Source: a virus (taxonomy: Duplodnaviria > Heunggongvirae > Uroviricota > Caudoviricetes). Taken from it: DNA of 22,482 nt. The notes below the pieces were generated by a model. The model was not told where the DNA came from. It ran no database searches and saw only the letters and a program-made list of their open reading frames with translations. The number at the start of each line of letters is the position of its first letter. Positions within the stretch are counted from its first letter, which is position 1. The position numbers and the translations under genes were made by a program. Positions 2,736 through 22,482 of this stretch are shown piece by piece. The DNA is taken from the IMG/VR virus record IMGVR_UViG_2531839146_000018; one strand, 5' to 3'.

Positions 2736-4070
2736 CTATGGCGTTGTTTTATGCCTTAAATTTGATTTTTTATTGATTGATAAGCCTTTCTCTATTTCAG
2801 GGTAGCGTAGAAGCTCAATATAGTTTTTAAGCTCTACTGGAGAAGCTGCATTCTTGCTATATGTGCGGAATGTCTCTGTATTGCCGCGTGTATGGCCCAG
2901 GAGAAGGGCGATCCTGTCTTCTGGAATTTGATTTCGATCAAGAAGCTGTGCTACTCCGTGTCTCAGAGAATGAAACACCTTCCTTTCTGTTCCCTTTTCC
3001 CCTAAAGCCTTTCGTTTAGCTCTTGTAAATCTCTGCGTGTGCCACGTGGAACGTTTACCATCAGCACGCTCTGTAATGCTGGCGTGATAGAACAAAAAGC
3101 CATTGTGAGGCTTTTCACGAAGAGATAACACCAATGGAGTGATAAGGCTATGCACAGGCACAACACGTGCCGCAGCTTTCGTCTTTCCCTGTGTGATTTC
3201 AAAACACAGCACACCTTCGATCTCTTTCACATCGTCTATTGTGAGACTTGCTATCTCATTGATCCGCATACCTGTATAAGCACCGATAAGACACAAAGCC
3301 ATCATTTCTTTGTTTTCTGCTGAATCACCGGAAAATACTTGCAACACTTGCAATAGCTCTTTGTTAGAAAATGCCTCATAGCTCTCTCTACTTTGTGCCA
3401 CATCAAGCCTATGCCCTCGCCAGGGGGAGAGCGCCCTTTCTGGCGCATCGTGGTAACGTGATGAAGCTAACTCCCATAGCTGGGCCATTGGGCTGATATA
3501 ATTTGCAATTGATTGTTGTGAAAGGGTTTTTTGCATGTGTTCTATCCAGCCTGTAACAGTGGTGCGGCTCACATCTTGCAATGCAATATCAGGCTTTTTA
3601 CGGTAGGAGAGAAACATCTCTACCGCTTTTCTTGCCTTAGCTAAAGTGGCTGGCTTCTTCTTCGTGCTGTTAATTGTCAGGTAGATTTCAAGAATTTTAA
3701 GCAATGACGGACACGAAGACGCTGTATCTTGCATTCTGGTAGCTGTTTTGGCGTATTTAGCCTTACTGCGTAACAGTTCCAGCGTGTTCTCTATTGTGCT
3801 GTTTACAGGGGCGACACTCTCCCGTAGACAATGGTATTCATCTGCAATCTGATCACGCTTTCTACGTGCAACACGAAGATTACTTGTGTGCAGACTTCTA
3901 ACAAACGTCCTTTTTCCTTCAAAAAAGGGCTGCATATACACAGGCAACGTGATCCTCAAATAGTAGTTACCGTAAGAATCACAGATTATGTATTGATTGG
4001 GCTTGTATCTCATAAACTCCCCGGCTAAAGTGTCGGAGCGTTTGTAATGTGAAAATTGATTGTAACGCAT
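2736..4070 (-). CDS. Tyrosine-type site-specific integrase/recombinase (444 aa; start may be the internal Met at 4013)
   Basis: C-terminal catalytic region with HxxR (FHSLRHGVAQLL) and LLGH...Y signature typical of phage integrase family; N-terminal part unrecognised. Confidence 0.85.
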   Translation of the reverse strand: MRYNQFSHYKRSDTLAGEFMRYKPNQYIICDSYGNYYLRITLPVYMQPFFEGKRTFVRSLHTSNLRVARRKRDQIADEYHCLRESVAPVNSTIENTLELLRSKAKYAKTATRMQDTASSCPSLLKILEIYLTINSTKKKPATLAKARKAVEMFLSYRKKPDIALQDVSRTTVTGWIEHMQKTLSQQSIANYISPMAQLWELASSRYHDAPERALSPWRGHRLDVAQSRESYEAFSNKELLQVLQVFSGDSAENKEMMALCLIGAYTGMRINEIASLTIDDVKEIEGVLCFEITQGKTKAAARVVPVHSLITPLVLSLREKPHNGFLFYHASITERADGKRSTWHTQRFTRAKRKALGEKGTERKVFHSLRHGVAQLLDRNQIPEDRIALLLGHTRGNTETFRTYSKNAASPVELKNYIELLRYPEIEKGLSINKKSNLRHKTTP

Positions 4071-4152
4071 AGAAAATGATAATTTTTTCTATAAGATTCA
4101 ATCAATTAGTAATGGTCGTAGGTGATGGCATTAACACGAGATTAATCGAGTG

Positions 4153-4181
4153 TTTTACTCCTATTATCGGCACCATTCAAA
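4153..4181. repeat. Repeat X (TTTTACTCCTATTATCGGCACCATTCAAA), second copy at 21925-21952; candidate att-associated sequence
   Basis: About 24 of 29 positions shared with 21925-21952 in the same orientation. Confidence 0.45.
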
Positions 4182-4191
4182 CATCTCCCCA

Positions 4192-4272
4192 AGTCTACTA
4201 AAGTCTTTCAAAACCCCTTATAATCCGCGTATTAAAGCCCCGTTCGTCTTTTGACGTCTACTAAAGTCCCTC
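4192..4272. repeat. Two direct copies of TCTACTAAAGTC(T/C)(T/C)TCAAAA spaced about 63 bp apart in the inter-integrase region; candidate protein-binding (arm-type) sites
   Basis: Direct repeat read at about 4193-4212 and 4256-4275. Confidence 0.4.
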
Positions 4273-4288
4273 AAAATCTACGGCCAGA

Positions 4289-4340
4289 TGGGGGTACTTA
4301 TGGGGGTATTTGCTGTTCGGTTTAGTGGAGGTACCCCCAA
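4289..4340. repeat. Repeat Y: two direct TGGGGGTA copies (4289-4309) plus an inverted copy GTACCCCCAA (4331-4340) immediately upstream of the P4-type int start; near-identical direct copy at 21848-21868
   Basis: TGGGGGTACTTATGGGGGTAT versus TGGGGGTACTTTTGGGGGTAT at 21848-21868 (20 of 21 identical); candidate att core or integrase-binding sites. Confidence 0.5.
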
Positions 4341-5555
4341 GTGAAACTCAATGCCCGTCAAATAGACACAGCCAAGCCAAAAGAGAAGGCTTACAAGCTG
4401 GCCGATGGTGGCGGTTTGTATCTCTTGGTAAAACCTAATGGAGGTAAATACTGGCGACTTAAATATCGTGTAGCTGGTAAAGAGAAGCTATTGGCACTAG
4501 GTGTGTATCCTGAGGTTACTCTAGCCGATGCTCGGGCAAAACGTGAAGATGCGAAAAGAGGTATCGCTGGTGGTATCGATCCGATGGAAGCGAAACGAGA
4601 GGAAAAGATTGCCCGGGAAACGCAGTTAAACAACACCTTCAAAGATATTGCCCTTGAGTGGCACAGCAGTAAATTAAAAAAATGGTCTGCTGGTTATGCT
4701 TCAGACATCCTCGAAGCCTTCAACAAAGATGTGCTCCCTTACATTGGCAAAAAACCAATCGCCGAAATCAAACCACTTGAACTTCTGAATGTGCTGCGGC
4801 GCATCGAGGGGCGAGGTGCTACAGAAAAAGCCAAAAAAGTGAGGCAGCGGTGCGGGGAAGTTTTCCGCTATGCAATAGTCACTGGTCGCGCAGAGTATAA
4901 CCCTGCACCAGACCTTACTAGCGCGATGCAAGGCCATGAATCTAATCATTACCCTTTCCTTACAGCCAAAGAATTACCTGATTTTTTCAAGGCATTGTCC
5001 AGTTACTCAGGAAGCGCATTGGTTGTTATGGCGGCTCGTCTACTGATTATCACCGGCTTGCGAACTGGCGAACTACGTGGCGCATTATGGGATGAAATTG
5101 ATTTCAACAAGGCTATCTGGGAGATACCCGCTTCACGTATGAAAATGCGGCGGCCTCATATTGTGCCATTGTCTGAGCAGGCTCTTTCGCTTATTGGGAA
5201 GATTAGAGAAATAACAGGCAATTACCCTCTTATGTTTCCCGGGCGCAATGATCCAAGGAAAACAATGAGTGAGGCCAGCATAAACCAAGTGTTTAAGCGC
5301 ATTGGCTACGCTGGACGTGTAACTGGTCATGGGTTCCGGCACACTATGAGTACGATTTTGCATGAGCAGGGCTATAACACTGCGTGGATAGAAACACAGC
5401 TCGCTCACGTTGATAAGAACTCAATTCGTGGCACATACAACCATGCGCAATATCTGGATGGAAGGCGGGAGATGCTTCAATGGTATGCCGACTATATGGA
5501 TTCTCTCGAGCATGGCGGAAATGTGGTGCATATGGTGTTTGAAAAACACGCATGA
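4341..5555 (+). CDS. int: P4-type (IntA/CP4-57-like) tyrosine integrase, GTG start
   Basis: N-terminus MKLNARQIDTAKPKEKAYKLADGGGLYLLVKPNGGKYWRLKYR matches the conserved arm-binding N-terminal pattern of P4-family integrases; C-terminal HGFRHT...Y catalytic motifs; GGAGG 9 nt upstream of the GTG. Confidence 0.9.
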   Translation: MKLNARQIDTAKPKEKAYKLADGGGLYLLVKPNGGKYWRLKYRVAGKEKLLALGVYPEVTLADARAKREDAKRGIAGGIDPMEAKREEKIARETQLNNTFKDIALEWHSSKLKKWSAGYASDILEAFNKDVLPYIGKKPIAEIKPLELLNVLRRIEGRGATEKAKKVRQRCGEVFRYAIVTGRAEYNPAPDLTSAMQGHESNHYPFLTAKELPDFFKALSSYSGSALVVMAARLLIITGLRTGELRGALWDEIDFNKAIWEIPASRMKMRRPHIVPLSEQALSLIGKIREITGNYPLMFPGRNDPRKTMSEASINQVFKRIGYAGRVTGHGFRHTMSTILHEQGYNTAWIETQLAHVDKNSIRGTYNHAQYLDGRREMLQWYADYMDSLEHGGNVVHMVFEKHA

Positions 5556-5649
5556 AACAACTGGACAAGTGTACAGAGGTTTACTAAAGTATAGGGGAGT
5601 AGATTGATAAAAACTCACAGAGGATTGCTATTTAACAGTTAGCCCTGGA

Positions 5650-5900
5650 GAAGGGCAATCGCTCTTTTATAAACGAAGGTGTATTGAGCCTTCTACGCTG
5701 CTGAAAAGCGGAATGTTCTTTAACAGGCTTTGGCGCTGACAAAGCGCAATTGTTCTTTAAAACTACTGGATGTCACGCCTAATAGCGTGATCCTGCCGAA
5801 ATGCAGGGTAGCTCTACCCTTGTGGAGCAAACAAACCAAAACAATCTGACTATCTTTTATAAAAGACCGCAATATGTTTTTCATATTGTGGTCTTTGGCG
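5650..5900. promoter_or_regulatory. int-alpA intergenic control region: three direct repeats of about 20 bp (GGCAATCGCTCTTTTATAAA-like at about 5653, 5708, 5745) and a 15 bp-stem hairpin (5862-5896)
   Basis: Repeats and inverted repeat read directly; position upstream of alpA suggests operator or promoter function. Confidence 0.35.
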
Positions 5901-5982
5901 TATTCGACATTTGACGCAAATAAAACTCTCGCCATTCGTTGCAGGAGGGGGTTATTGCGTCATTAGTACAGGATATTAATAA

Positions 5983-6186
5983 ATGGCTAATTACAATTCA
6001 TTAATTCGTCTCTCTGAAGTTCAAAGGCGAACTGGTTATAGCAAAGCATGGATTTATCGTCTTATTAGTCAGGGGAGGTTCCCTAAACAGGTAAAAATTG
6101 GAAGTCGGGCTATTGCTTTTGTTGAGTCTGAAATAGATGAATGGATTGAGAAGTGTATATTAGAATCTAGAGACGAGGTGGCCTGA
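5983..6186 (+). CDS. alpA: AlpA-family transcriptional regulator / excisionase-like protein
   Basis: 67 aa protein with the AlpA signature (LIRLSEV...TGYSKAWIYRLISQGRFPKQVKIG.R.IAFVESEIDEWI); position directly after a P4-type int. Confidence 0.85.
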   Translation: MANYNSLIRLSEVQRRTGYSKAWIYRLISQGRFPKQVKIGSRAIAFVESEIDEWIEKCILESRDEVA

Positions 6187-6617
6187 TGGAAAAGAAAAAC
6201 CGCCCATTACAGGCGGCTAATTCAGATATTCGCGTATCTGATATTACGCCCCTTACAAAATCCCTTCAAGCACCAAAGCGCACACCGAAAAAGCATCGTG
6301 CCCGAGTCTATATGCTGCGTACTGGTATAGAGGGATGGACAGAAAACGACATTCTTCGCTACTGCCGTCTGTCTTCTGGTCGTAACTATGCAACAGAGTT
6401 AGAACGCCAGCTTGGAATCACTCTGGAGCGTATCGACGAAAAGAATCCTGATGGTATCGGAACACACCTTCGCTACCGTTTCTCCTGCCGTGGTGATGTT
6501 CTGAAAGTGATCACTCATATTAACCATCTTGCGAACATAAATGATCACAACGGACTTTCTCAGCAGGAAATTGCCGACATTCTGAAACTCTACCCGGACG
6601 CGTTTAACGCCGCTTAA
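6186..6617 (+). CDS. Hypothetical protein (143 aa), basic N-terminus; conserved-island protein of unknown function
   Basis: Start overlaps the alpA stop (TGATG), GAGGTGG Shine-Dalgarno; no domain recognised. Confidence 0.7.
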   Translation: MEKKNRPLQAANSDIRVSDITPLTKSLQAPKRTPKKHRARVYMLRTGIEGWTENDILRYCRLSSGRNYATELERQLGITLERIDEKNPDGIGTHLRYRFSCRGDVLKVITHINHLANINDHNGLSQQEIADILKLYPDAFNAA

Positions 6618-6629
6618 CGGAGACTGAAA

Positions 6630-7463
6630 ATGAACATCGAAAAAAGCAGATTAATTTCTGAGGCCGCCCCTCATCTGAACGCCTCTCTGAGCACAATTAA
6701 CGGTAATGAATTTGCCGCAATTGTCCCGGTTATTCCTGGTCATATCGGTGGGCGTGAAACCAATATTGTTAGCGCAAAAGCGTTACACAAAGCGTTGGGC
6801 GTGGGAAAAGACTTCTCTACATGGATCACTGATCGCATCTCTGAATATGACTTCACCATTGGGCACGATTACTCAGTCCATAAAACTATTTCCCCAAATT
6901 TGGGGAAAAGCCCGAATGGCGCGGCTTACAGCAAGATTAAGCAGTCTGGCAGACCCGGCAAAGACTATCTGTTAAGTGTCGGAATGGCGAAAGAACTGGC
7001 AATGATCGAACGCAATGATCAGGGTCGCGCTATCCGCCGTTATTTCATCCAGTGCGAGGAAGAATTACAGCGTAGCGTTCCTGAAATCGCCGCCCGCTAT
7101 CGTCGCCAGCTAAAAGCCCGTATCAGTGCCGCAAACAACTTTAAGCCAATGTGCGATGCGCTGAATATGGCCCGTGCCGAGCAGGGGAAAACGACGCAGC
7201 AACACCACTACACAAACGAGAGCAATATGATTTCTCGTATCGTTCTTGGTGGGCTAACTGCTAAGCAGTGGGCGCGGATAAATGGCTATTCTGGCGAACC
7301 TCGCGACCATATGAACGCAGAACAGCTTGAGCACCTCTCATATCTCGAAAGCACCAATATCACGTTAATTGATATGGGCATGGAATATGAGCAGCGCAAA
7401 GGAGAACTCACCCGCCTGTCGCAACGCTGGCTCGCTAAGCGTCTGGAGGCGGTCCATGTTTAA
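6630..7463 (+). CDS. Phage antirepressor-like protein (Bro-N / KilA-C type domains)
   Basis: Composition and motifs (N-terminal AntA/Bro-like region, C-terminal ...RAIRRYFIQCEEELQR... KilA-C-like region) recalled as antirepressor family; ACGGAG Shine-Dalgarno. Confidence 0.75.
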   Translation: MNIEKSRLISEAAPHLNASLSTINGNEFAAIVPVIPGHIGGRETNIVSAKALHKALGVGKDFSTWITDRISEYDFTIGHDYSVHKTISPNLGKSPNGAAYSKIKQSGRPGKDYLLSVGMAKELAMIERNDQGRAIRRYFIQCEEELQRSVPEIAARYRRQLKARISAANNFKPMCDALNMARAEQGKTTQQHHYTNESNMISRIVLGGLTAKQWARINGYSGEPRDHMNAEQLEHLSYLESTNITLIDMGMEYEQRKGELTRLSQRWLAKRLEAVHV

Positions 7464-7638
7464 GCCGACAGGAACATCACAACCTCAAAAACGCTACAAA
7501 GATGCCCACGGAGCACTCGTTACTGTCGAAAGCGTGTCTCACAACCAAGTGACGTTTTATCGCGACGGGTATCAATCGCCATGCGTACAACCGCTGGCAC
7601 GTTTCATGAAGGAGTTCGCGGAGGTTAACAAATGCTAA
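7456..7638 (+). CDS. Small hypothetical protein (60 aa; MFKPTGTSQPQKRYKDAHGALVTVESV...), possibly DUF4222-like
   Basis: ATG overlapping the end of the previous gene; family assignment is from memory and uncertain. Confidence 0.55.
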   Translation: MFKPTGTSQPQKRYKDAHGALVTVESVSHNQVTFYRDGYQSPCVQPLARFMKEFAEVNKC

Positions 7639-8480
7639 CCGCCCAGAAGAAGATATTTTCACTGGCTGGCATGTCGCCAAAATCCAGTAATATGACGGCA
7701 AAATCAGGCATTAATACAGCAGATACAAGCAAAGTTTATCATTTGCTGGTGGTAGGAGCGGATGCCTTAACTATGTCAGAAATCACGGTCGATGGTGTTA
7801 GCGTTGAGAAGGTCAGCAGCTGCGCCAGAGAATTTCTGGTCGTAGATGGCTTTCTCTGCTCGCGTAGTGACTCCACAAAAACCTTCGTCCACACGCGCGA
7901 CGTTAACGAAATGAGCGCGATGTATTGTACATCTGGTGCTTCCAATAGTGAGTTTTCGGAGTCCATAAAAAAGAGCTTGCCGTTATGCGGCAACACGGTT
8001 TATGGTTATAAGGCACCTCATAAAACGGGTGCCGGGTTTCGCAGCCCGGAAATGTACGAGGCGACACATGACGCGCCGAGCGTCTTTTTTTGTGCCGTTA
8101 GCCAGACTCACACTTTTTTCAGTGATGCGGTTATAATCCGCGTCGCTTGCAAAATTATGGTGGGCTGGACAGGGCAGCCGAAAGGCTGGCCGGTTTCCTT
8201 GTACGCCGGTACTGCGAACTCTGTTCAGTCCACCACCAGCGAGTTTCGCAGCTCCGGTGGTGGGAAGAATTCCCAGTACAAGGAGGCTGCCACATGCTGG
8301 CTACTACCCCTACCCAAAAACCGCAATTTATCTGGATTATCGCCGCAGTTCGCCGCGATTGCCCGACAATTACCGCCAAAATTCATCATATTGCTGCCGA
8401 GTCTGAACGCGATGCTCGCCGTTCTCTGGTGCGCGATCACGTCTGCTTTTTTGCTGGTCGTATCCGCATGGAGGTGGCAC
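7632..8480 (+). CDS. Uncertain ORF (first part of a 355-codon open frame); Ser/Cys/Trp-rich translation looks poorly protein-like
   Basis: ATG overlaps the previous stop and follows GAGG, but the frame runs into the well-supported gene at 8481 and overlaps 8294-8488 in another frame. Confidence 0.25.
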
Positions 8481-8488
8481 ATGATTAA
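8294..8488 (+). CDS. Small hypothetical protein (64 aa; [24 protein letters not shown]...)
   Basis: Strong AAGGAGG Shine-Dalgarno 8 nt upstream of the ATG. Confidence 0.5.
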   Translation: MLATTPTQKPQFIWIIAAVRRDCPTITAKIHHIAAESERDARRSLVRDHVCFFAGRIRMEVAHD

Positions 8489-8699
8489 AACCTACGATGT
8501 GCATATGGATCCCCTCGAACGCACAAGCCAGATCATCACACTGACAGAAGTGATTAATGACATTCTGGTGAGCAACTCTCCCTCACGAGACGAAAAACTG
8601 AAGGCGTTACTCGCGATATTGGATCTCGCCGTTCGTGACGTTCATTTCCTGCTGGAAGGTGGCGAAATGCCAGGAAAAACGGGGGCAACCAATGAATAA
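8481..8699 (+). CDS. Small hypothetical protein (72 aa; MIKTYDVHMDPLERTSQIITLTEV...)
   Basis: GGAGGTG Shine-Dalgarno 5 nt upstream of the ATG; stop overlaps the next start (ATGAATAA). Confidence 0.6.
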   Translation: MIKTYDVHMDPLERTSQIITLTEVINDILVSNSPSRDEKLKALLAILDLAVRDVHFLLEGGEMPGKTGATNE

Positions 8700-8886
8700 C
8701 TCAATTAATGCCCCTCGACTTACGTCCGCACTTCAATTAATCGAGCAAGCAGCGGCTGTCCTGGTTGCTGTCAGTCTTTCGGCTGAAGAAATGGACGCTG
8801 CTGATGTCGTGGATGCGATTAAAGCGTGCTCATCTTTGGTTAACGATGCTCGTGCAGAGCTGGTAATTCTTGGGGGTGAAAAATGA
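8692..8886 (+). CDS. Small hypothetical protein (64 aa; MNNSINAPRLTSALQLIEQAAAVLVAV...)
   Basis: Translationally coupled to neighbours through overlapping stop/start. Confidence 0.55.
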   Translation: MNNSINAPRLTSALQLIEQAAAVLVAVSLSAEEMDAADVVDAIKACSSLVNDARAELVILGGEK

Positions 8887-9146
8887 ATATCAACTTAATT
8901 TATCGTCATCCGTGTGAGCTGGAAATTGAATCATTGCTGAGCCGTGAAGAGCCATATCCAGACACATTCACTCTTGCAGATCGCACGACTGAACGGCTTA
9001 CCAGAGCGCGCACAGGTCTGGTTCATGTGATGAATGAGATTCTTCCATCGGTGGGAGGGGAACAGGCGACAGTAATCACTAGCTGGCTACAAAAAGTTAC
9101 CTCTCTGATAGATATCAGTTTAATCGATGCGGAGAGTGCGAAATGA
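8883..9146 (+). CDS. Small hypothetical protein (87 aa)
   Basis: ORF with overlapping start/stop coupling on both sides. Confidence 0.6.
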   Translation: MNINLIYRHPCELEIESLLSREEPYPDTFTLADRTTERLTRARTGLVHVMNEILPSVGGEQATVITSWLQKVTSLIDISLIDAESAK

Positions 9147-9364
9147 CCAACATCCAGCTCATTGAAGCACAATGTCGCATCGAACAGGTTCAGACTGTTT
9201 TAGGGTTCTGGCTTGAAGGGGCCAGCCCCAGCAACAGAGACAAGTTAATGATTGGCGCGGTTATGTCACTGCTCAATGGCGTACCAGAAGCTATTCAGGA
9301 AGCAGACGAATTGTTGGGCAAATATGAGTTACAGAATCATTCAGGCGAGGCGAAACATGAATAA
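9143..9364 (+). CDS. Small hypothetical protein (73 aa)
   Basis: ORF with overlapping start/stop coupling on both sides. Confidence 0.6.
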   Translation: MTNIQLIEAQCRIEQVQTVLGFWLEGASPSNRDKLMIGAVMSLLNGVPEAIQEADELLGKYELQNHSGEAKHE

Positions 9365-9959
9365 TTTCTTAACTTTCCATGCAGAAGCAACGCCTGACGG
9401 CGTAAACATCATGTACCGCAGCAACGATGGAATGACAGAACGCGTTGAGGCCGTCTCATATATTGATGCCGTAAATCGTCTGGATGCCGGGGATTATGAC
9501 GATAAACCAGATGAAGGTATGTCAATACATCTCGCTATAGCCGATGGCGGCAACCAGGGATATTTCGATTACACATCACAGCATAACGTCATTATGTGGA
9601 GATGGCTGATCGCAACAGTATTCATGCTGGAAATGAGAGAGGAAAACGGCACTGTCAGCATCATTGATGATACTGGCAATCCTTCCGAAGTGGCTGTTTA
9701 TTCCAACGGCATCGTCGCCATGCCGCTGTATCCAGTAGCAGAGCGCCTCGCTATGGCAAACAACATTGAGGGCGCGATGATAGAACGTTTTGGCATCGAG
9801 TCTGGCACAGAACGCGCCATCATTTTCTACAGAGCCATGATGGATGTGGAACAAGGAGCACTGACTCCATTTGGTCGTGAAACGCTTGCTGAACTTCACA
9901 ACAGCTTTATAGCTGAACTGAATGAAAACGGCATGCCAGCGGAACCAGTGACGCACTGA
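9357..9959 (+). CDS. Hypothetical protein (200 aa from the ATG at 9357; MNNFLTFHAEATPDGVNIMYRSNDG...)
   Basis: ATG overlaps the previous stop; the ORF track's upstream extension (9252) is probably not translated. Confidence 0.65.
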   Translation: MNNFLTFHAEATPDGVNIMYRSNDGMTERVEAVSYIDAVNRLDAGDYDDKPDEGMSIHLAIADGGNQGYFDYTSQHNVIMWRWLIATVFMLEMREENGTVSIIDDTGNPSEVAVYSNGIVAMPLYPVAERLAMANNIEGAMIERFGIESGTERAIIFYRAMMDVEQGALTPFGRETLAELHNSFIAELNENGMPAEPVTH

Positions 9960-9969
9960 GGATGGAACC

Positions 9970-10311
9970 ATGATTACTAAAAATTTCCGACTGAATGCGC
10001 TGGCAAATAAGTATGCGTCGGCACTGTATAAGCACATTACCTCCACCAGCGGCGGGGACTATTTCATGGTTGATGCGGACGGCGAGGCCGTCCGTGTGGA
10101 AATCGTCAATGGAGTAAAAGGCGTTCGCAGCCTGATCGATAGCTACACACTAGCAGCCATGAAAGTGTTCTACCCGCAGTGGGAAACCGTGGGGATCGAG
10201 CTTCTTGATCGTTGCGTCACTAAGGACGGATTGACTGACGTCGGGCGTGAGATATGGCAAAGCATGGTTAATGACATGGGCGCAACTGTAGCGGGAGGTT
10301 CTCATGCGTGA
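9970..10311 (+). CDS. Hypothetical protein (113 aa)
   Basis: ORF in the same-strand coupled block upstream of the primase. Confidence 0.65.
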   Translation: MITKNFRLNALANKYASALYKHITSTSGGDYFMVDADGEAVRVEIVNGVKGVRSLIDSYTLAAMKVFYPQWETVGIELLDRCVTKDGLTDVGREIWQSMVNDMGATVAGGSHA

Positions 10312-10675
10312 AAATGCAGAAATGGCGCTTAGCTCCGCAATCGGAGAGCAGGTGGCAAAGATTGCTGGTGCTGTGTGGATTCATAACCTTCATTCTACTG
10401 GTGAAGAGAAAATGGCAATTCAGACGCCAGAGGGACGCACCATTACTACATCTCTGAAGCCGTCAGATGTTTGTGATCTGATTTGCGCATTCATGTACCC
10501 AGCAATGAGGACTGCCCACGGCGATAAGTGGAAACTTGCGACAACCGCTGAATTTGATATGTGGCTAAACAATGATGGCATGCTGACTGATTACGGAATA
10601 ACCAAGTGGCAGATGCTGGTTAGCCATATCGCAAACGCTATAGACCACGTGGGGTACGGTGATGCGAAACATTGA
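10304..10675 (+). CDS. Hypothetical protein (123 aa)
   Basis: ORF overlapping both neighbours; immediately precedes the primase. Confidence 0.65.
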   Translation: MRENAEMALSSAIGEQVAKIAGAVWIHNLHSTGEEKMAIQTPEGRTITTSLKPSDVCDLICAFMYPAMRTAHGDKWKLATTAEFDMWLNNDGMLTDYGITKWQMLVSHIANAIDHVGYGDAKH

Positions 10676-13418
10676 TCTTATCCGTCAGGTTATCAGTGCG
10701 TCTGAAAACAACTGGCCTCATGTGCTGGGCTGCCTGAACATAAATGTCCCTGACTCTCCGCGCCGTCATGCTCCCTGCCCTGCATGTGGGGGCAAAGATC
10801 GATTCCGGTTCGATGACAACGGGCGCGGTAGCTTCATCTGTAATCAGTGCGGCGCTGGTGATGGGCTGGATTTAATTAAACGCGTAAATAACTGCGACAC
10901 AACAGAGGCGGCGCTTCTTGCCGCTGATGTTCTGGGTATTGATTACCGGACAACGGAAACACCAGAAGCCACCAGCCAGAAACGGGAACAACTGGAAACC
11001 GAGCGCCAGCGACGCGAACAGGAGCGCCTGAAAAGGGCAGAGAAGGACGAACAACAAAGACGGGATACGTTTTCCCGTCAGTTTGATGACATGCGCAGAA
11101 AGGCTGTAAACGGCAAATCTGATTATCTGGTTGCGAAAGGGGTAGGTGATTTTACATTCCCCGTGTTGCCCGATGGATCTCTGTTGCTGGCGCTGGTGGA
11201 TAAATCCGGCGCAGTCACAGCAGCACAGACAATTACCTCACATGGTGAAAAAAGACTCCTGACAGGTTCAGCAAAGCGGGGGGCATATCACGCCATAAAC
11301 GCACCAGAAACAACACAGAGCATCTTAATCGCAGAAGGGCTGGCAACGGCATTATCTGCCCATTTAATTCGTCCAGAGGCGCTGACAGTGGCGGCGATTG
11401 ATGCCGGGAACCTGTTATATGTCGCCCAGGTACTGCGGGATAAATTTCCTTCAGCACAAATCATCATTGCTGCGGATAACGACCACAGCGAAGGAAGACA
11501 AAACACGGGGAGAATAGCAGCAGAAAAAGCAGCTTTATCTGTTTCTGGATGGGTGGCATTACCCCCGACAGATCACAAAGCAGACTGGAATGATTACCAC
11601 CAAAAACACGGCATTAAATGCGCCACAGAAGCGTTCAATAAATCAATGTACCAACCACAGGGTAATGGCGTGAAACAGGAGCCACAGACCATTGAAGGAA
11701 GCGATTTTAAGGTTATGGATACCGACCCACTGAAACCAAGAATAGAAAGCCGCGAGGATGGTATTTATTGGGTATCTCCGAGAGCTGACAGCCAGAGTGG
11801 AGAAATCATCAATAACGAAAGCTGGTTATGTTCTCCGTTAAGCGTTATCGGTACTGGCAGAGACGATAAAGACCAGTATCTCATTCTGCGCTGGCTGTCG
11901 TTTGGTTCTGAAACGCCGACAACCGCTGCCATTCCACTGGCTGATATTGGTGAACGTGAAGGATGGCGCACACTTAAAGCTGGTGGGGTAAATGTCACGA
12001 CCAAAAGCAGCCTCAGAGCAATACTGGCAGACTGGCTACAACGCAGTGGCTCTCGTGAATTGTGGCGTGTTGCTCATGCCACTGGCTGGCAATGCGGAGC
12101 GTACATCATGCCTGATGGGGAAATCATCGGAACACCTGAAAATCCTGTGCTGTTCAGCGGGAGAAGCTCAGCCGCAGCCGGATATACCGTCTCAGGGAGC
12201 GCGAAAAGCTGGCGTGATAACGTGGCGCGTCTGGCCTTTGGTAACTATTCAATGATGACCGGGATCGGCGCAGCACTGGCAGCGCCATTGATTGGGCTGG
12301 TGGGCGCTGACGGGTTCGGCATTCATTTCTATGAGCAGTCGAGCGCAGGTAAGACCACCACGGCAAACGTGGCGAGCAGCTTATACGGCAACCCTGATTT
12401 ACTGCGGCTGACGTGGTACGGAACCGCGCTGGGGCTGGCAAATGAGGCCGCCGCCCACAATGATGGATTAATGCCGCTTGATGAAGTTGGTCAGGGCGCT
12501 GATCCTGTCAGCGTTTCACAGTCTGCCTATGCGTTATTTAACGGTGTAGGGAAACTGCAAGGCGCTAAAGACGGTGGAAACCGGGATCTAAAACGCTGGC
12601 GTACAGTGGCAATCAGCACCGGAGAAATGGATTTAGAAACATTTATCGCTACTTCCGGGCGAAAAACTAAAGCCGGGCAACTGGTGCGACTGCTGAATAT
12701 TCCGTTGAGTAAAGCAGTACGCTTTCACGATTATCAGAACGGAAAACAGCACGCAGACGCACTGAAAGACGCTTACCAGCATCACCATGGCGCAGCCGGG
12801 CGTGAGTGGATTAAATGGCTGGCAGACCACCAGCAACAGGCAATTAAAACTGTTCGTGACTGCGAAAGCAGATGGAGAAGTCTGATCCCATCCGATTATG
12901 GTGAGCAGGTTCACCGTGTAGCCGCGCGATTTGCCATTCTGGAGGGCGCATTGCTGTTAGGCGAGGTTGTAACAGGCTGGGATGCTCAGATATGCCGTGA
13001 TGCGATACAGCACAGCTATAACGCATGGTTGCGCGAGTTCGGCACAGGTAACAAAGAACATCAGCAGATTATTGAACAAACGGAGGCATTTCTTAATGCC
13101 TATGGGCTTAGCCGTTTTGCACCATTTCCATACAGCCCGGCAGATTTGCCCATCAAAGATTTAGCCGGATACCGTCAGCGTGGAGAACATGACGAAAGCC
13201 CAATGATTTTCTACACATTCCCGGCCACATTTGAAAAGGAGATCGCATGTGGTTTCAACGCAAAACAGTTTGCTGAAGTGTTGAAAAAAGCCGGGATGCT
13301 AACCCCACCAAACAGCGGTCGTGGATACCAAAGAAAATCACCACGTATTCAGGGACGACAAATAAACGTTTATGTACTCAATTACCAGCCGGGAGATTAT
13401 AACTCATCTGAAGAATGA
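10662..13418 (+). CDS. Satellite/PICI-type replication protein: primase-helicase with N-terminal zinc finger, Toprim and C-terminal P-loop NTPase (DUF927-like) regions
   Basis: CPACGG...CNQCGAGDG zinc-binding motif, Toprim-like acidic motif IIIAADNDHSEGRQNTG, Walker A-like FYEQSSAGKTTT; family identification recalled, not searched. Confidence 0.9.
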   Translation: MRNIDLIRQVISASENNWPHVLGCLNINVPDSPRRHAPCPACGGKDRFRFDDNGRGSFICNQCGAGDGLDLIKRVNNCDTTEAALLAADVLGIDYRTTETPEATSQKREQLETERQRREQERLKRAEKDEQQRRDTFSRQFDDMRRKAVNGKSDYLVAKGVGDFTFPVLPDGSLLLALVDKSGAVTAAQTITSHGEKRLLTGSAKRGAYHAINAPETTQSILIAEGLATALSAHLIRPEALTVAAIDAGNLLYVAQVLRDKFPSAQIIIAADNDHSEGRQNTGRIAAEKAALSVSGWVALPPTDHKADWNDYHQKHGIKCATEAFNKSMYQPQGNGVKQEPQTIEGSDFKVMDTDPLKPRIESREDGIYWVSPRADSQSGEIINNESWLCSPLSVIGTGRDDKDQYLILRWLSFGSETPTTAAIPLADIGEREGWRTLKAGGVNVTTKSSLRAILADWLQRSGSRELWRVAHATGWQCGAYIMPDGEIIGTPENPVLFSGRSSAAAGYTVSGSAKSWRDNVARLAFGNYSMMTGIGAALAAPLIGLVGADGFGIHFYEQSSAGKTTTANVASSLYGNPDLLRLTWYGTALGLANEAAAHNDGLMPLDEVGQGADPVSVSQSAYALFNGVGKLQGAKDGGNRDLKRWRTVAISTGEMDLETFIATSGRKTKAGQLVRLLNIPLSKAVRFHDYQNGKQHADALKDAYQHHHGAAGREWIKWLADHQQQAIKTVRDCESRWRSLIPSDYGEQVHRVAARFAILEGALLLGEVVTGWDAQICRDAIQHSYNAWLREFGTGNKEHQQIIEQTEAFLNAYGLSRFAPFPYSPADLPIKDLAGYRQRGEHDESPMIFYTFPATFEKEIACGFNAKQFAEVLKKAGMLTPPNSGRGYQRKSPRIQGRQINVYVLNYQPGDYNSSEE

Positions 13419-13440
13419 GCTTCTTCATGTGCGTAGAAAA

Positions 13441-13555
13441 GGTGTTGGTTCAGTTGGTTCAGTTGGTTCAATTTGTAAAGAGTATTGTTTTATAAGGATT
13501 TTATTCTTTTTATTGAACCAACACTGAACCAACAATACGGTATTTTGAACCAACA
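13441..13555. repeat. Iteron-type replication origin candidate: three direct GTTGGTTCA repeats (13444-13470), AT-rich spacer, three inverted TGAACCAACA repeats (13514-13555)
   Basis: Repeats read directly; location immediately downstream of the primase gene matches ori placement in P4/PICI-type elements. Confidence 0.7.
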
Positions 13556-13662
13556 CAATGTGACTGAATTGATGCGCACAACACCTGGCTGGCATCAGAG
13601 AGTGTTTTACGAGACTTTCGTAAAATCCTGTGTACAAGGGCGTGACGTTTTTGAAAGTGAGC

Positions 13663-13681
13663 ACTACGAAATTTTCGTAGT
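13663..13681. promoter_or_regulatory. Perfect palindrome ACTACGAAA-T-TTTCGTAGT; the same half-site motif (CGAAAATTTCGTAGG) recurs twice at 21539-21575
   Basis: 9 bp inverted arms read directly; shared motif at the right end suggests a common DNA-binding protein site. Confidence 0.4.
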
Positions 13682-13874
13682 TCAGAAAACAGGCCCTGAG
13701 AAGTTGTTATGCCTGTTCAGCAAACCATCCGCATAGCTGATCGCGAATCAAATTACCAATGGAGCCAGAAGTAAGGGCAGAACTGAAAAGCGCCTGCCGT
13801 GAAGAGTAATGCGACACCATAAATATAGTTTTTAGAGTCCATAAAAAACCTGTCAAAACCTGACACACAGAACG

Positions 13875-13908
13875 ATGCCACCAGCTACTGAACGGTGGCA
13901 TTTTTTTG
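13875..13908 (+). terminator. Rho-independent terminator candidate (8 bp stem ATGCCACC/GGTGGCAT, 11 nt loop, followed by TTTTTTT)
   Basis: Hairpin plus a 7-T run read directly. Confidence 0.6.
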
Positions 13909-14002
13909 TGCTATTTGTTTCATATTTTGCAATTACGATGATGAATATTGCGATTTGTGAAACTATAATAACTGTTGTTTTATACAGTTCTAAGGGGGCG
14001 TT

Positions 14003-14164
14003 ATGGCTGTTTCAGTAAAGCCGGTATTGATAAGTGAGAAGCAAATGGAAGCGATAAAGAAAATTCAGGAAGAGCAGCGTAAAAAATCAGGAATTGGAGT
14101 AGCGCCAACTCTGCATGAAATTGCACGAGGGTTAATAGATAAGGCGCTGGCAGGCTGTATGTGA
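14003..14164 (+). CDS. Small protein (53 aa; MAVSVKPVLISEKQMEAIKKIQEEQRKKSGIGVAPTLHEIARGLIDKALAGCM), possibly a ribbon-helix-helix type DNA-binding regulator
   Basis: Strong AAGGGGG Shine-Dalgarno 3-4 nt before the ATG; beta-strand then two-helix pattern typical of Arc/CopG-like proteins; not in the ORF track (under 60 aa). Confidence 0.5.
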   Translation: MAVSVKPVLISEKQMEAIKKIQEEQRKKSGIGVAPTLHEIARGLIDKALAGCM

Positions 14165-14180
14165 AAATGGATGGCATCGC

Positions 14181-14642
14181 ATGGAACTAAAATTTATTGA
14201 TAACCCTGTGCGATTACAGGCCTTTCTTAACGAGCCTGGCAATACCGAAAATATTGTTGAGCCGGGGCACACGTACTACATCAAGCCTGATGCGGTATAT
14301 CTCGGCATCTACGAAGGATTAGTGCTGGCCGGCGTTCATGAAGTGCGTAACTTCTGGCATAGCGTTGTTGAATGCCATGCGGTGTACGACCCCGGATTCC
14401 GTGGTGAATATGCACTGCAAGGTCATCGATTATTCTGCAAATGGCTTCTCGAAAACTCACCATTCCTTAACAGCGTCACCATGGTTCCTGACACAACGAA
14501 ATACGGACGGTCAATTATCCGTTTGCTTGGCGCTACCCGTGTTGGTCACCTGGCCGATGCATATATCAGATGTGGTAAGCCAGTCGGCGTAACGCTTTAT
14601 CAGTTAACGCGGCAACAATATAAGGAACTCAGCGAATGTTAA
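14181..14642 (+). CDS. Hypothetical protein (153 aa), first gene of the four-gene cargo operon; unknown function
   Basis: ORF tightly followed by three overlapping downstream genes; no domain recognised. Confidence 0.7.
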   Translation: MELKFIDNPVRLQAFLNEPGNTENIVEPGHTYYIKPDAVYLGIYEGLVLAGVHEVRNFWHSVVECHAVYDPGFRGEYALQGHRLFCKWLLENSPFLNSVTMVPDTTKYGRSIIRLLGATRVGHLADAYIRCGKPVGVTLYQLTRQQYKELSEC

Positions 14643-15313
14643 TTACCCATATAGCTCATAAACATCTCAATCGTGCCGTATACGAAAAAGGCGGTGATGG
14701 TGGTGCCTCTAAAGCCCAGGCGAAGGCCCAGCAGCAGGCAATTGATTTGCAGCGCGAGCAGTGGAATACGGTGATGAATAATCTCAAGCCGTATGCAGAA
14801 GTCGGATTGCCTGCTTTACAACAACTACAAGGACTGATGACTCTGGAAGGGCAGAATAAAGCCGCGAATGATTTCTTTGGTTCTGGTTTATATAAAACAC
14901 AGGCAGATCAGGCCCGTTATCAGAACCTTGTCTCAGCAGAAGCTACCGGGGGGCTTGGCTCAACAGCTACCAGTAACCAGTTATCTTCCATTGCGCCCAT
15001 GCTTTATAACAATTGGCTCAGTGGGCAAATGCAAAATTATGGAAACCTGCTAAATGTCGGGATGAATGCGGCATCAGGGCAGGCAACAGCAGGGCAAAAC
15101 TACGCCAATAATACCGGACAACTCTTGCAGGGGCTTGGCGCTATTCGTGCAGGTCAGGCGCAGCAGCCATCCAGTCTTGCGCGTGGTATTGGTGGGGCGG
15201 CATCAGGCGCTTTAGCGGGTGCGCAACTTGGTTCCGTTGTTCCGGGTATAGGTAATGTCGCCGGGGCTATTGGTGGTGGGCTTATTGGTCTTGTTGGGGG
15301 GCTTGGATTCTAA
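14636..15313 (+). CDS. Low-complexity Q/A/G-rich protein (225 aa) with glycine-zipper-like hydrophobic C-terminus; candidate ejection/injection (P22 gp7-like) protein
   Basis: Start overlaps the upstream stop; composition and C-terminal GGLIGLVGGLGF segment; the P22-like assignment rests on size, order and composition only. Confidence 0.75.
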   Translation: MLITHIAHKHLNRAVYEKGGDGGASKAQAKAQQQAIDLQREQWNTVMNNLKPYAEVGLPALQQLQGLMTLEGQNKAANDFFGSGLYKTQADQARYQNLVSAEATGGLGSTATSNQLSSIAPMLYNNWLSGQMQNYGNLLNVGMNAASGQATAGQNYANNTGQLLQGLGAIRAGQAQQPSSLARGIGGAASGALAGAQLGSVVPGIGNVAGAIGGGLIGLVGGLGF

Positions 15314-16734
15314 TGGCGACATGGCAACTTGGCGGGCTGCCTGGCATGGCACCGCAAAATGATAATGCTCCTCGTTCTTCCGTTCCTCAGCCTGTGCAGT
15401 ATCAGCAGCAGCCAAACGTAGGTTTAATGGCGCTACAGGGGCTAAGAGGCGTTGCTGAGATTAATCAGCAGGCACGTCAACAACAGCGTAAAGCAGAGTT
15501 TCAGAAAGCATATGCCGGGGCTTTTGAGTCTGGAGACAGAAACAAAATGCGCAGTCTTATTTCTGAGTATCCAGAAGAATTTGAAAGCGTTCAGAAAGGG
15601 ATGGGCTTTATTGATGACGACCAGAGAAATTCTATTGGTCATCTTGCGACTAGTGCTCAAATCGCATCTTCGCTCGGAACTGGGGCATTTGGAAAATTCA
15701 TAGCAGATAACGAAGATGAAATGCGTCGCTTGGGAATTTCTCCTGAGTCTGTTGCCGAAATGCATGTTAATGATCCACAGGAATTCCAGCGGCTTGCTGG
15801 TAGTATGGCACTGTTTTCTCTCGGTCATGAGAAGTACTTCGATATCAAAGATCGAATGGAAGGTCGGGATATTGAGCGTGGCAAGTTGGCAGAGACAATC
15901 CGCAGCAATCAGGCTGGAGAGGCGCTTCAGGCGAGAGGGCAGGATATTAGCCGAGCAAATGCGTTAACGTCAGCATATGCACCAACAGCCGCAATGCAGA
16001 ATTACAATCAGTACGCGCAAATGTTAAAGGCGGATCCAGAGGGGGCAGCGGCATTTGCGGCAGCGGCTGGAATTAATACAAACGCCAAAAAATTAATGAG
16101 TGTTAGGGAAAACGATGATGGCACTGTCACAAAATACTACACAGACGGAAGTGAAGAGCAGGGAAAACTAAACCAGCCAATATCTGGAGATGGGTTTCGT
16201 CCAATAGCTTTGCCAACAGCTCAAAAGATCATGGAAAAGTCGCCAGAAGGGGCTAAAAAAGTTGCTGGATTTGCATACAGAGTTAGGGATGCTCTTGATT
16301 CAATGGATACACTGAAAGGCCAGCTTAGCCCACAGCGAGTGGCGATCATTAATAATGCTTTGGGTAATGGGACGCTGGCTAACTTAACGCTCAGCCCAAC
16401 AGAGCAGCAATACGTTGTTAATGCTAATGACGCAATAATGGCAATACTCCGTCAGGAAACAGGGGCAGCAATCGTACCTGCTGAAATGTCAAAATATTAT
16501 CAAATGTATTTCCCTCAGCCTGGCGACTCCACAAAAACCATTGATACCAAGCGCCGGAAGATGGAAAACCAGTTCAATTCGCTGAAAGCTGCTTCTGGTC
16601 GAGCTTATGATGCTTTGCGTGTTATTTCAGCAGTTGACAGAGGAACTTCTTCTTCGTCGCAGACATTGCCGCAATCTGAGCAGGTATCACAGCCAGCAGC
16701 CAGCAGTAATTTTTCTTCACTATGGGGTGATTAA
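15313..16734 (+). CDS. Low-complexity Q/A/S-rich protein (473 aa); candidate ejection/injection (P22 gp20-like) protein
   Basis: TAATG start/stop overlap with neighbours; size close to 471 aa recalled for P22 gp20; no sequence-level confirmation. Confidence 0.8.
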   Translation: MATWQLGGLPGMAPQNDNAPRSSVPQPVQYQQQPNVGLMALQGLRGVAEINQQARQQQRKAEFQKAYAGAFESGDRNKMRSLISEYPEEFESVQKGMGFIDDDQRNSIGHLATSAQIASSLGTGAFGKFIADNEDEMRRLGISPESVAEMHVNDPQEFQRLAGSMALFSLGHEKYFDIKDRMEGRDIERGKLAETIRSNQAGEALQARGQDISRANALTSAYAPTAAMQNYNQYAQMLKADPEGAAAFAAAAGINTNAKKLMSVRENDDGTVTKYYTDGSEEQGKLNQPISGDGFRPIALPTAQKIMEKSPEGAKKVAGFAYRVRDALDSMDTLKGQLSPQRVAIINNALGNGTLANLTLSPTEQQYVVNANDAIMAILRQETGAAIVPAEMSKYYQMYFPQPGDSTKTIDTKRRKMENQFNSLKAASGRAYDALRVISAVDRGTSSSSQTLPQSEQVSQPAASSNFSSLWGD

Positions 16735-18839: not shown

Positions 18840-18842
18840 CTG

Positions 18843-18869
18843 GTTAGCCACGGATGGCTAATTTTTGTT
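18843..18869 (+). terminator. Rho-independent terminator candidate for the cargo operon (stem GTTAGCCA/TGGCTAA(T), loop CGGA, then TTTTTGTT)
   Basis: Hairpin and T-run read directly, 4 nt after the stop of the 701 aa gene. Confidence 0.65.
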
Positions 18870-19277
18870 CTTTGCTCTCATCCACAGGTAAAGAAGGGCA
18901 AGAACAAGACAAAAAACAGAGAATAGATAACCTACCTCATATGGTGCGCCAAAAAAATTAGCTATTGATACGGGCAAAAAAGCTGAAGCGATCAAAATTG
19001 AAAGGCAAAAAATAAGCCCAGTAATATAGTTTATTAAATTCTTAAATGAGAAATGTTTTGCTTGATTTACGGTCTTAGCGAATGATCGCTTAACGACGGA
19101 TAAAAGCAAATAGATGGCGACAGTTGCTAATGCCCCTTTCCACCAATCTGGATATAGTTTTGCGACAATCAGACCAAGGAAAACCATGATGACAGCCTGA
19201 GCATTCACACCAACCCTCCCTTTAGCGTTGTTTAGAATGGCAATCATCATATATCCAAGACATGGCATTTGGTACAT
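18858..19277 (-). CDS. Small integral membrane protein (139 aa, about 4 hydrophobic helices), AT-rich; moron-like, candidate superinfection-exclusion or abortive-infection factor
   Basis: Convergent with the cargo operon; strongly hydrophobic segments; markedly lower GC than neighbours. Confidence 0.6.
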   Translation of the reverse strand: MYQMPCLGYMMIAILNNAKGRVGVNAQAVIMVFLGLIVAKLYPDWWKGALATVAIYLLLSVVKRSFAKTVNQAKHFSFKNLINYITGLIFCLSILIASAFLPVSIANFFGAPYEVGYLFSVFCLVLALLYLWMRAKNKN

Positions 19278-19401
19278 AGCTTGGGTCGGGATTTCAAATC
19301 CGATCCCCGTTGATGGGGCCGTTACAGTACGCGCATATCCGCTTTATGTGAAACAGGAAGATTTTTCTGATATCACTGCCACAGCAAAACACCAATTTCG
19401 G

Positions 19402-19704
19402 GACAAGTACGCGCGCGAGGGGTATCAGTTGCAAAAAATTTTGCAACTACGTCCGACCAGTATGCACACGATGGCGGGGGGATACCATAAAACTGTTCTC
19501 TACATGAGACAGAGTGGTGGTGATGTGTTGATTATCGGCGTATATGCGCACAGGACGCGCTATGACGATGTTTTATGCGGGTACACCAATCCCATGTATC
19601 TGGTGTGATAAATCGCGTTACATGACCTCTCATGTTGTGCTGGTGGTTATCACGACGTTCTGAATCTGGCCTTTGCCTGGTATTTTGCGACAAGTACGCG
19701 CGCG
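19402..19704. repeat. Degenerate GC-rich region with a 16 bp direct repeat GACAAGTACGCGCGCG (19402-19417 and 19689-19704) and an operator-like inverted repeat GTTGCAAAA-AA-TTTTGCAAC (19428-19447)
   Basis: Repeats read directly; no convincing ORF on either strand. Confidence 0.4.
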
Positions 19705-20438: not shown

Positions 20439-20486
20439 AGAGGCTCCTCTGCTTTAGATTAAGCATAGTGACAATCTGGCTTTGGC

Positions 20487-21847: not shown

Positions 21848-21952
21848 TGGGGGTACTTTTGGGGGTATCTTCAAAGATGTAATTGGAAAATATCTTTATA
21901 TATCAATGTATTTTTATTGTTTGTTTTGTTCCTATTATCGCACCATTTAAAT
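21848..21952. repeat. Right-end copies of repeat Y (21848-21868) and repeat X (21925-21952); candidate attR or integrase-binding region marking the right boundary of the island
   Basis: Y matches 4289-4309 at 20 of 21 positions; X matches 4153-4181 at about 24 of 29; the X/Y order is reversed relative to the left junction. Confidence 0.45.
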
Positions 21953-22071
21953 CAATAAGTTACCCCATATTTAAATACACCACGTTTCCTCCTGTGCCGT
22001 ATTTGTGCCATTGTAACCCTGGCAATTCATCAAAATACTGTTCTGACATCAGGCAATGCAGGTGCAGACAT

Positions 22072-22482
22072 TTAAGCCAATTGCTGCCGCCATTCCTTGA
22101 CGTGGTCAATCAGGGCGCGGAGCTTTGGTGCAATATTGCGACGCTGTGGGAAATACAGATAGAAGCCTGGAAATTGTGGAAGAAAGTCATCAAGCAGCGA
22201 TACAAGCTTACCGCTTTCAATATATGGCCTGAAAGTTTCCTGAGTGGCAATTGTTATTCCTTCACCGACAAGAGCCAGCTGCAACATCAGACGCAGATCA
22301 TTAGTCGTAATCTGCGGTTCAATCGCAAGGTCGAAAGTTCTCCCGTTTTCTTCAAATGGCCAGCGATAAGGCGCAACCTCCGGGGACTGACGCCAGCCGA
22401 TACACTTATGGGTATTTCCCCCGGAGGCGAGAAAGCGCTCTCCACGCCCGGCCGCAAGGATCAGGACGACGGGGGCAGGCAT
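22072..22482 (-). CDS. LysR-family transcriptional regulator, C-terminal substrate-binding domain (partial; N-terminus lies beyond the window end)
   Basis: C-terminal region ...LVGEGITIATQETFRPYIESGKLVSLLDDF...FYLYFPQRRNIAPKLRALIDHV is typical of LysR-type effector domains; taken as chromosomal flank. Confidence 0.75.
   Translation of the reverse strand: MPAPVVLILAAGRGERFLASGGNTHKCIGWRQSPEVAPYRWPFEENGRTFDLAIEPQITTNDLRLMLQLALVGEGITIATQETFRPYIESGKLVSLLDDFLPQFPGFYLYFPQRRNIAPKLRALIDHVKEWRQQLA

Follow-up and report, generated by a model that had tools for sequence, protein, structure and literature searches.

Organization of the locus

The window analyzed here, a stretch of 22,482 nucleotides deposited as a viral record (IMGVR_UViG_2531839146_000018), was placed by megablast in the E. 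coli chromosome between proA-thrW and yagP'-paoD. Strain 20KM2222 (L001) is 98.7% identical to positions 356-22482 of the window, and its chromosome gives the order of the locus as proA, the intact tRNA-Thr gene thrW, a 13-kb element that we term A, the interval studied here, a second element that we term B, the LysR fragment yagP', and paoD, with the intact thrW located about 13 kb to the left of the window, at the outer left end of the array and beyond element A. An earlier note on this DNA, made from its letters and open reading frames, had described two integrase genes diverging from the interval 4071-4340. This is what we find: the left gene, that of element A, lies on the minus strand, the right gene, that of element B, lies on the plus strand, and Pfam integrase domains are present in both (Table 1). 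The start of the A gene is ambiguous, as position 4070 corresponds to the longest open reading frame, which is without a Shine-Dalgarno sequence, and position 4013 is the RefSeq call, which is preceded by the Shine-Dalgarno sequence GGGGAG; the non-coding interval between the integrases is 270 or 327 bp depending on which start is used. The B gene starts with GTG, and an ATG is found at the same position in more distant relatives (Int at most 87% identical), which supports 4341 as the start of B int. To the right of element B, the chromosomal flank B' is identical to the sequence that follows thrW at the unoccupied site of E. coli 042.

Table 1. Features of the thrW junction and of the ends of element B (window coordinates; offsets are relative to the start of B int)
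Feature	Position	Strand	Description	Evidence or comment
Integrase of element A	2736..4070	-	Phage_integrase, DUF6538, Phage_int_SAM_5 (Pfam)	Annotated as tyrosine recombinase in L001 and L004
P arm of A (its attR side) and upstream region of A int	4071..4156			Identical to the sequence left of the core where A is alone (L004)
X1, hybrid att core	4157..4177	+	ACTCCTATTATCGGCACCA = last 19 nt of thrW, then TT	Alignment of thrW and of the empty site
P' arm of B (attL side)	4178..4340	+	163 nt, core to int start codon	Same sequence after intact thrW in L003 and MP1
S1	4193..4213	+	21-nt unit GTCTACTAAAGTCTTTCAAAA with GTCTACT; -149
S2	4256..4276	+	Second copy of the 21-nt unit; -86
S3	4276..4282	+	ATCTACG, third and shorter copy of the motif; -66
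Y1	4289..4296	+	TGGGGGTA; -52	Probable arm-type Int site
Y2	4301..4308	+	TGGGGGTA; -40	Probable arm-type Int site
Y3	4332..4339	-	Inverted TGGGGGTA; -9	Overlap with the GGAGG ribosome-binding site; 1 nt short of the GTG start
Integrase of element B	4341..5555	+	Arm-DNA-bind_3, Phage_int_M, Phage_integrase (Pfam)	NCBIfam PRK09692
AlpA-family protein of B	5983..6186	+	Weak 'excise' domain match	WP_000035054.1, also annotated at the alpA position in MP1
Y4 and Y5	21848..21867	+	Direct TGGGGGTA pair	P arm of B, 82 nt before the core
X2, attR core of B	21929..21947	+	TTCCTATTATC-GCACCATT = thrW 3' end minus one G
Chromosomal flank B'	21948..22482		yagP' LysR-fragment pseudogene and paoD 3' end	Annotation; matches the E. 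coli 042 empty site
yagP' LysR-fragment pseudogene	22072..22410	-

Two independent elements at the thrW site

The distribution of the junction was determined by searching synthetic junction queries against 5,426 complete E. coli genomes. The empty site, in which proA, thrW and yagP' are contiguous, is present in 948 of them, and the unoccupied site of E. coli 042 aligns exactly as left flank, one core, and right flank. In 712 genomes (for example AR_0069, L003) thrW is joined straight to the P' arm and a B-type int, and in 277 (for example cq9, L004) the int of element A, the core and the chromosomal flank B' are directly joined. The A-then-B junction of the window occurs in 70 genomes, and the reverse order, thrW-B-A-yagP', is found in E. 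coli O26 strain RM10386 (L085) and a few other genomes. The predicted junctions match base for base in the example loci with A alone and with B alone, which confirms the X copies as marks of the element boundaries, and in both documented tandem orders (20KM2222, A then B; RM10386, B then A) a core copy is shared between the elements. The 5,426 genomes thus amount to a natural experiment in which two unrelated integrases use one 19-bp core in either order.

The alignment against an unoccupied site that the earlier note had put forward as a check identifies the core as the 3' end of thrW, with a right flank that matches E. coli 042. Its proposal of a boundary between two tandem integrative elements is borne out, as each element occurs alone at thrW, an empty site exists and both orders are found, and the two outcomes that it had named as refuting the proposal, namely repeats lying away from the boundaries and both integrases belonging to one element, are contradicted by the related genomes. 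We conclude that two integrative elements, independent of each other and each recombining within the 3' end of thrW, very probably meet in the interval. The element boundaries, the identity of the core and the independence of A and B are direct observations.

The att cores and the tRNA fragment

The 3' end of thrW reads ...GGTTCGACTCCTATTATCGGCACCA, and X1 and X2 both align to it, so that element B is bounded on either side by a directly repeated tRNA 3' end. X1, which serves as attR of element A and attL of element B, is found once in the window when up to three mismatches are allowed. Over its larger extent repeat X (4142-4169 and 21913-21940) matches at 79%, and its core, TCCTATTATCGGCACCATT at 4159-4177, is found again at 21930-21947 with one nucleotide missing. 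The recurrence of both X and Y at the far right end, which had been recognized in the earlier reading, is therefore seen again here (Y at 21848 and 21860), and the assignment of the interval to the attL side of a right-hand island also holds, X1 and the P' arm of B following the thrW 3' sequence as in AR_0069 and MP1. The island itself is real, and its length is 17,770 bp (4178-21947) instead of the 17.6 kb first estimated.

The junction shows no tRNA because X is a copy of the thrW 3' end made by integration and the intact gene lies outside the window. ARAGORN found no complete tRNA over the window, as the earlier note had remarked, and an Rfam scan of 4000-4400 at a permissive threshold gave chance-level matches only, the 19-nt tRNA fragment being too short for the tRNA model. 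The accompanying suggestion that this is atypical for a P4-type integrase does not stand, X being the end of thrW.

The thrW-side core copy is intact in every B-type element compared. The attR core is perfect in L024 and L026, whereas one G is missing from it in the window, MP1 and Citrobacter and four bases in AR_0069, where the copy lies at about 36527-36542 (the copy in MP1, on the reverse complement, is at 21784). The form with the 1-nt deletion is common to the window, the experimentally mobile EcCIMP1 of MP1 and the Citrobacter amalonaticus island. Given these variable attR cores, some B-type copies may be immobile. The shared 1-nt deletion would suit strand exchange within CACCATT, but a circular contig with the P arm of MP1 has a perfect core and AR_0069 has the 4-nt deletion. 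Because the attR core varies between perfect, 1-nt-deleted and 4-nt-deleted forms, the crossover can be placed only to the 19-bp identity block.

Repeats in the arms of element B

The Y repeat, TGGGGGTA, is present in five copies in 22.5 kb (4289, 4301, 4332 inverted, 21848 and 21860), compared with about 0.32 expected, and none of 100 shuffles reaches five. All five lie in the two arms of B, three in P' and two in P, with none elsewhere in the window; the three upstream of the right int, two direct and one inverted, are those that the earlier note had listed. The other repeat, TCTACTAAAGTC, is present twice (4194 and 4257, with about 0.03 copies expected) and extends to 21 nt at 90% identity. 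These two copies of the GTCTACT-type motif had been identified previously, and a shorter third copy at 4276-4282 had been overlooked; in 25 sequences this S3 motif is invariant (AAATCTAC / AAATCAAC) at -66. By itself RTCTACK is scattered over the window (12 copies, 5.5 expected), and among these copies only the three conserved ones of the P' arm are meaningful.

Conservation was assessed in relatives fetched with the B Int protein, one genome per species. Where Int is at least 71% identical, int starts 165-166 nt after tRNA-Thr(CGT) in 22 of 24 species, as it does here, and for more distant Int relatives the gap is comparable (about 160-245 nt), the neighbouring gene being that of tRNA-Arg, Gly, SeC, Ser or Phe. 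Alignment of the P' arm (165 nt) across genera reveals conserved islands at fixed offsets from the int start codon. The S sites change jointly, all three of them reading TCAAC in L022-L028 and two of them reading TCCAC in L021, and the Y sites also change jointly and independently of S, from GGGGGTA to GGGGGCA at all three P' copies in L018-L020 and L022-L028. On the other side of the element, E. coli AR_0069, Citrobacter, L024 and L026 (Siccibacter) retain the Y pair of the P arm at 78-83 nt from the core, with a spacer whose sequence differs.

We propose that the TGGGGGTA repeats are probably arm-type sites for the N-terminal domain of Int, since their conservation extends across genera and their changes parallel those of that domain. 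Of the Int alignment columns that separate the Y types, 9/16 fall within residues 1-88, compared with 48/188 of the variable columns (hypergeometric P = 0.006), a covariation that is confounded by phylogeny; between the L018-type Int and the window Int, the N-terminal domain is 66% identical and the remainder 83%. The GTCTACT (S) repeats, which are found only between the core and the int-proximal Y sites while Y is found on both arms, are probably sites of an AlpA excisionase, that is, of a recombination directionality factor (RDF), a pairing that we hold less firmly than that of Y with Int. The candidate excisionase or regulator acting on them, by analogy, is the AlpA-family protein encoded at 5983-6186. 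The link between S sites and AlpA is weakened by L012, which has an AlpA of the second type and yet keeps TCTAC at S2 and S3. Both pairings of protein and site draw on analogy together with covariation. A parallel comparison of the Int columns that separate TCTAC from TCAAC loci gave 67 columns spread over the whole protein and was uninformative because of phylogeny.

The innermost arm site, Y3, overlaps the ribosome-binding site of int, and from this overlap repression of int by Int is expected. The layout parallels that of KplE1 (see below), by analogy with which Y3 is a candidate site for Int autoregulation. A simple promoter scan detected no sigma-70 consensus upstream of B int.

Relationship of element B to EcCIMP1

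EcCIMP1 is a published phage satellite, a phage-inducible chromosomal island (PICI) of 19,963 bp in E. coli MP1 that is located in tRNA-Thr between proA and yagU and is flanked by TCCTATTATC (ISME J 2025, PMC11773190). Its genes include int, alpA and a second alpA of opposite orientation, together with ash, perC, genes for an antirepressor and a primase, and DUF2824 and DNA-transfer-like genes. Experiments showed that it excises, circularises and is transferred with the help of phage Kapi1, int and alpA both being required, and helper-driven induction, packaging and transfer are known for the MP1 element only (PMC11773190). Identity of the MP1 locus (L086) reaches 99.2% over window 4157-15473, a match that spans 11.3 kb of element B, and 97.9% over 19283-21181, and many of the RefSeq protein accessions are identical. 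On this similarity we regard element B as a variant of EcCIMP1, that is, as an EcCIMP1-type PICI with a different gp16-like region and a different right-end cargo. Its integrase, about 50% identical to those of Sf6, CUS-3 and Kapi1, belongs to the IntS/P4 type, with an arm-binding domain, and is predicted to be heterobivalent. B retains intact ORFs for int, alpA and the primase, and among 20 ORFs of 95 aa or longer Pfam detected AntA, Ash, Toprim/DUF927, P22 gp7, gp14, gp20-like and PerC domains.

A circular attP form exists for an element that is 98-99% identical to B. The contig IMGVR_UViG_2617270975_000009, of 21,415 nt, has a perfect 391-nt terminal overlap that closes it to a circle of 21,024 nt, and it carries P_B, TGTTCCTATTATCGGCACCATT, P'_B and int. 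A second and more distant circular relative of B, a contig of 12,914 nt with a 77-nt terminal overlap, has the same attP layout.

Several other features of element B were observed. An origin-like block is present twice in inverted orientation (13444-13554 and 20956-21076), with arms of 65 nt that are 94% complementary. In either block three GTTGGTTCA iterons are separated from three inverted ones by an AT-rich spacer of about 43 nt. One block lies just after the primase gene, and the two bracket a 7.4-kb module of P22-like ejection genes, as they also do in EcCIMP1 of MP1; the second block is a candidate for one side of an invertible segment or for a recombination scar. Window 14181-18839 encodes homologues of the P22 ejection proteins gp14 (DUF2824), gp7 and gp20, followed by a 701-aa ORF for which Pfam gave no match. 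In place of window 15473-19283, to which it has no similarity there, EcCIMP1 of MP1 encodes a 906-aa protein with a lytic-transglycosylase domain, and this segment has the appearance of an exchanged gp16-like cassette, one that may suit another P22-like helper. Between perC and attR (21472-21697) lie three 39-nt units, each a short hairpin followed by GAAAnAATCAnnGGGTTAG, and within this stretch (21535-21573) two tandem copies of the near-palindrome CGAAAATTTCGTAGG, a related copy of which is found at 13664-13682 near the first origin-like block; these units and near-palindromes may be packaging or regulatory sites.

Element A

Element A is a 12-13 kb phage-like island of several hundred E. 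coli genomes. Apart from the DUF6538 integrase, its products comprise a gpE-type major capsid protein, tape-measure-like (609 aa) and Dit-like proteins and a Rep-like HTH protein, and near its thrW-proximal end a stretch of 2-3 kb (L085 21050-24011; L001 9329-11958) is without any annotated gene or any ORF longer than 127 aa and gave no Rfam match. Upstream of A int a weak promoter-like site is predicted on the minus strand (4105-4076), around which lies a 23-nt inverted repeat (4054-4076 / 4085-4107), and a palindrome (4133-4154) abuts the core. A search for arm-type repeats common to the P and P' arms of A yielded nothing beyond an 8-mer and a 10-nt inverted match, close to what chance would give. 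The A integrase has no close relative among deposited phage genomes, and its relatives in IMG/VR are almost all 97-100% identical, leaving no power for footprinting. Viral contigs and metagenomes yielded neither a circular form of A nor its attP.

Positions 1-332 of the window are part of an IS1 copy (98.5% identical to K-12 IS1C, including insA) that interrupts a 613-aa tape-measure-like gene of A and is absent from the near-identical genome 20KM2222. Given this insertion and the lack of a circular form in the collections searched, element A may be a fixed remnant in this window. The element does not appear to be described. That it represents an undescribed family of phage satellite or phage-derived element, and not a decayed prophage, is a doubtful proposal that we offer tentatively; if true, A and the EcCIMP1-type PICIs would be rivals or partners at one and the same 19-bp core of thrW, and the upstream region of A int, which in the A-then-B order lies less than 100 bp from attL of B, could couple the regulation of the two integrases. 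The present analysis in any case points to A as a widespread and uncharacterised phage-like island.

Alternative readings of the junction

Three other readings of the interval have to be weighed. It could be the internal regulatory region of one composite element, for example a prophage with two recombinases, as would suit int genes that are adjacent and divergent and a junction common to 70 genomes. Against this, a B-type int stands right after thrW in 712 genomes and the A int right against the flank in 277, the reversed order in O26 strains sets the two int genes about 30 kb apart, and B alone occurs as a circle. As either half is found at thrW without the other and with exact junctions, the interval cannot belong to one element with two integrases; the population data already refute this reading, and its probability is negligible. 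It is also conceivable that the junction of two elements is an inert scar, both having decayed so that they no longer recombine and the repeats being relics. The 1-nt deletion in the attR core of B, the interruption of A by IS1 and the failure to find an attP of A in public collections all speak for decay, but the experimentally mobile EcCIMP1 has the identical 1-nt-deleted attR core (PMC11773190), B retains intact int, alpA and primase ORFs, and the sites of B are conserved across genera. We consider an inert scar unlikely for the junction as a whole, and this reading may still hold for element A.

A boundary that is real could also carry repeats whose roles are swapped or different, GTCTACT being the arm sites of Int and TGGGGGTA binding AlpA or a host or helper-phage protein. 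In L012, TCTAC indeed goes with the Int clade and not with the AlpA type. Arm-type sites are expected on both arms, however, and Y alone is found in both P and P', the S-type repeats being confined to the int side; the Y variants track changes that are concentrated in the arm-binding domain of Int; and in the homologous attL of KplE1 the GGGTA-containing arm sites lie by the start codon, with the RDF sites between them and the core. We judge a reassignment of the repeats to be quite unlikely and retain Y as the probable Int sites and S as the probable AlpA sites.

Proposed arrangement and comparison with known systems

From left to right, the joint of elements A and B consists of the int-proximal P arm of element A, the 21-bp hybrid core and the 163-bp P' arm of element B. 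At the other end of B, 17.8 kb to the right, a somewhat eroded second copy of the core adjoins the ancestral flank yagP'-paoD. The predicted attP junction of B is P_B-TCCTATTATCG(G)CACCATT-P'_B. In the arrangement that we propose, the five TGGGGGTA copies would be bound by the N-terminal domain of Int, an L018-type Int would favour TGGGGGCA in place of TGGGGGTA, and the three GTCTACT-type direct repeats would most likely bind the AlpA-family excisionase. Int, and probably AlpA as well, would repress int, as is the case in KplE1 and P4.

The gene thrW is a classic integration hotspot, and tandem islands at tRNA genes are familiar. The feature studied here is a textbook tandem array at such a hotspot, and the PICI of which its right-hand element is a variant was described in 2025. 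In E. coli, thrW is the target of at least three families of integrase, which fits its known status as a hotspot (PMC7545054). One of them is that of the cryptic prophage CP4-6 in K-12 (IntF, with the pseudo-tRNA ptwF), which resembles element A in its use of the thrW site and in having a minus-strand int by a partial copy of thrW, followed by yagP. The two differ in that the thrW duplication is 47 nt in CP4-6 and 19 nt here, and in that the A integrase is 24% identical to IntF over 136 residues, from which we take the two integrases to be unrelated.

The term 'P4-type' used in the earlier note describes, for element B, the integrase family only. B shares with the satellite phage P4 (Int, Vis, attP at leuX) the domain architecture of the integrase, comprising arm-binding, central and catalytic domains, and the position of int adjoining a tRNA 3' end, the target being leuX for P4 and thrW for B. 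Int and the RDF repress int in P4 (PMC2951348). Genes for capsid-size control (capsid remodelling) or interaction with P2 (sid, psu, delta) did not appear in the Pfam scans of the 20 ORFs of at least 95 aa, P4 is not among the top 25 phage matches to B Int, and the helper of B is predicted to be P22-like.

The closest parallel to the layout of the P' arm is provided by the group of KplE1 (CPS-53), HK620 and Sf6. At argW-intS of K-12, attL consists of the core, TorI (RDF) sites in two blocks, and GGGTA/TACCC arm sites abutting the start codon (PMC2951348). There attL overlaps the int promoter, Int and TorI both repress intS, and negative autoregulation has been demonstrated (PLoS Genet 2010, PMC2951348). 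Element B is alike in that its Int is about 50% identical, int points away from the tRNA 3' end, and the core is followed by probable RDF sites in two blocks and by three putative arm sites with GGGTA/TACCC, the last of them at the start codon. It is unlike KplE1 in its target (thrW and not argW), in its presumed RDF motif (GTCTAC and not GTTCG) and in its putative arm motif (TACCCCCA and not TTTTTACCC).

EcCIMP1 itself agrees with element B in the thrW insertion site, the direct repeat TCCTATTATC, the 1-nt-deleted attR core and the gene order int, alpA, antA, ash, icd, primase, DUF2824/ejection-like genes, second alpA on the opposite strand, and perC. It differs in size (19,963 bp, compared with 17.8 kb) and in two segments of B that have no match in MP1, namely window 15473-19283 with the 701-aa gp16-like ORF and its neighbours, and the last 0.8 kb or so before attR. 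The neighbours differ as well: in MP1 the vat island, with a truncated B-type integrase, is distal to the PICI, whereas here element A, with an unrelated integrase, is proximal. In MP1 (reverse complement, about 21784-22290) the attR core of EcCIMP1 is directly followed by a second B-type P' arm and this truncated integrase, which is 86% identical, making another tandem type at the same core. The published description of EcCIMP1 stops at the 10-bp repeat and does not include the arm architecture; the present analysis extends it to a base-level map of attP, attL and attR for the EcCIMP1 integrase clade, comprising the core, three RDF-like repeats and five arm-type repeats, together with their fixed offsets and their covariation.
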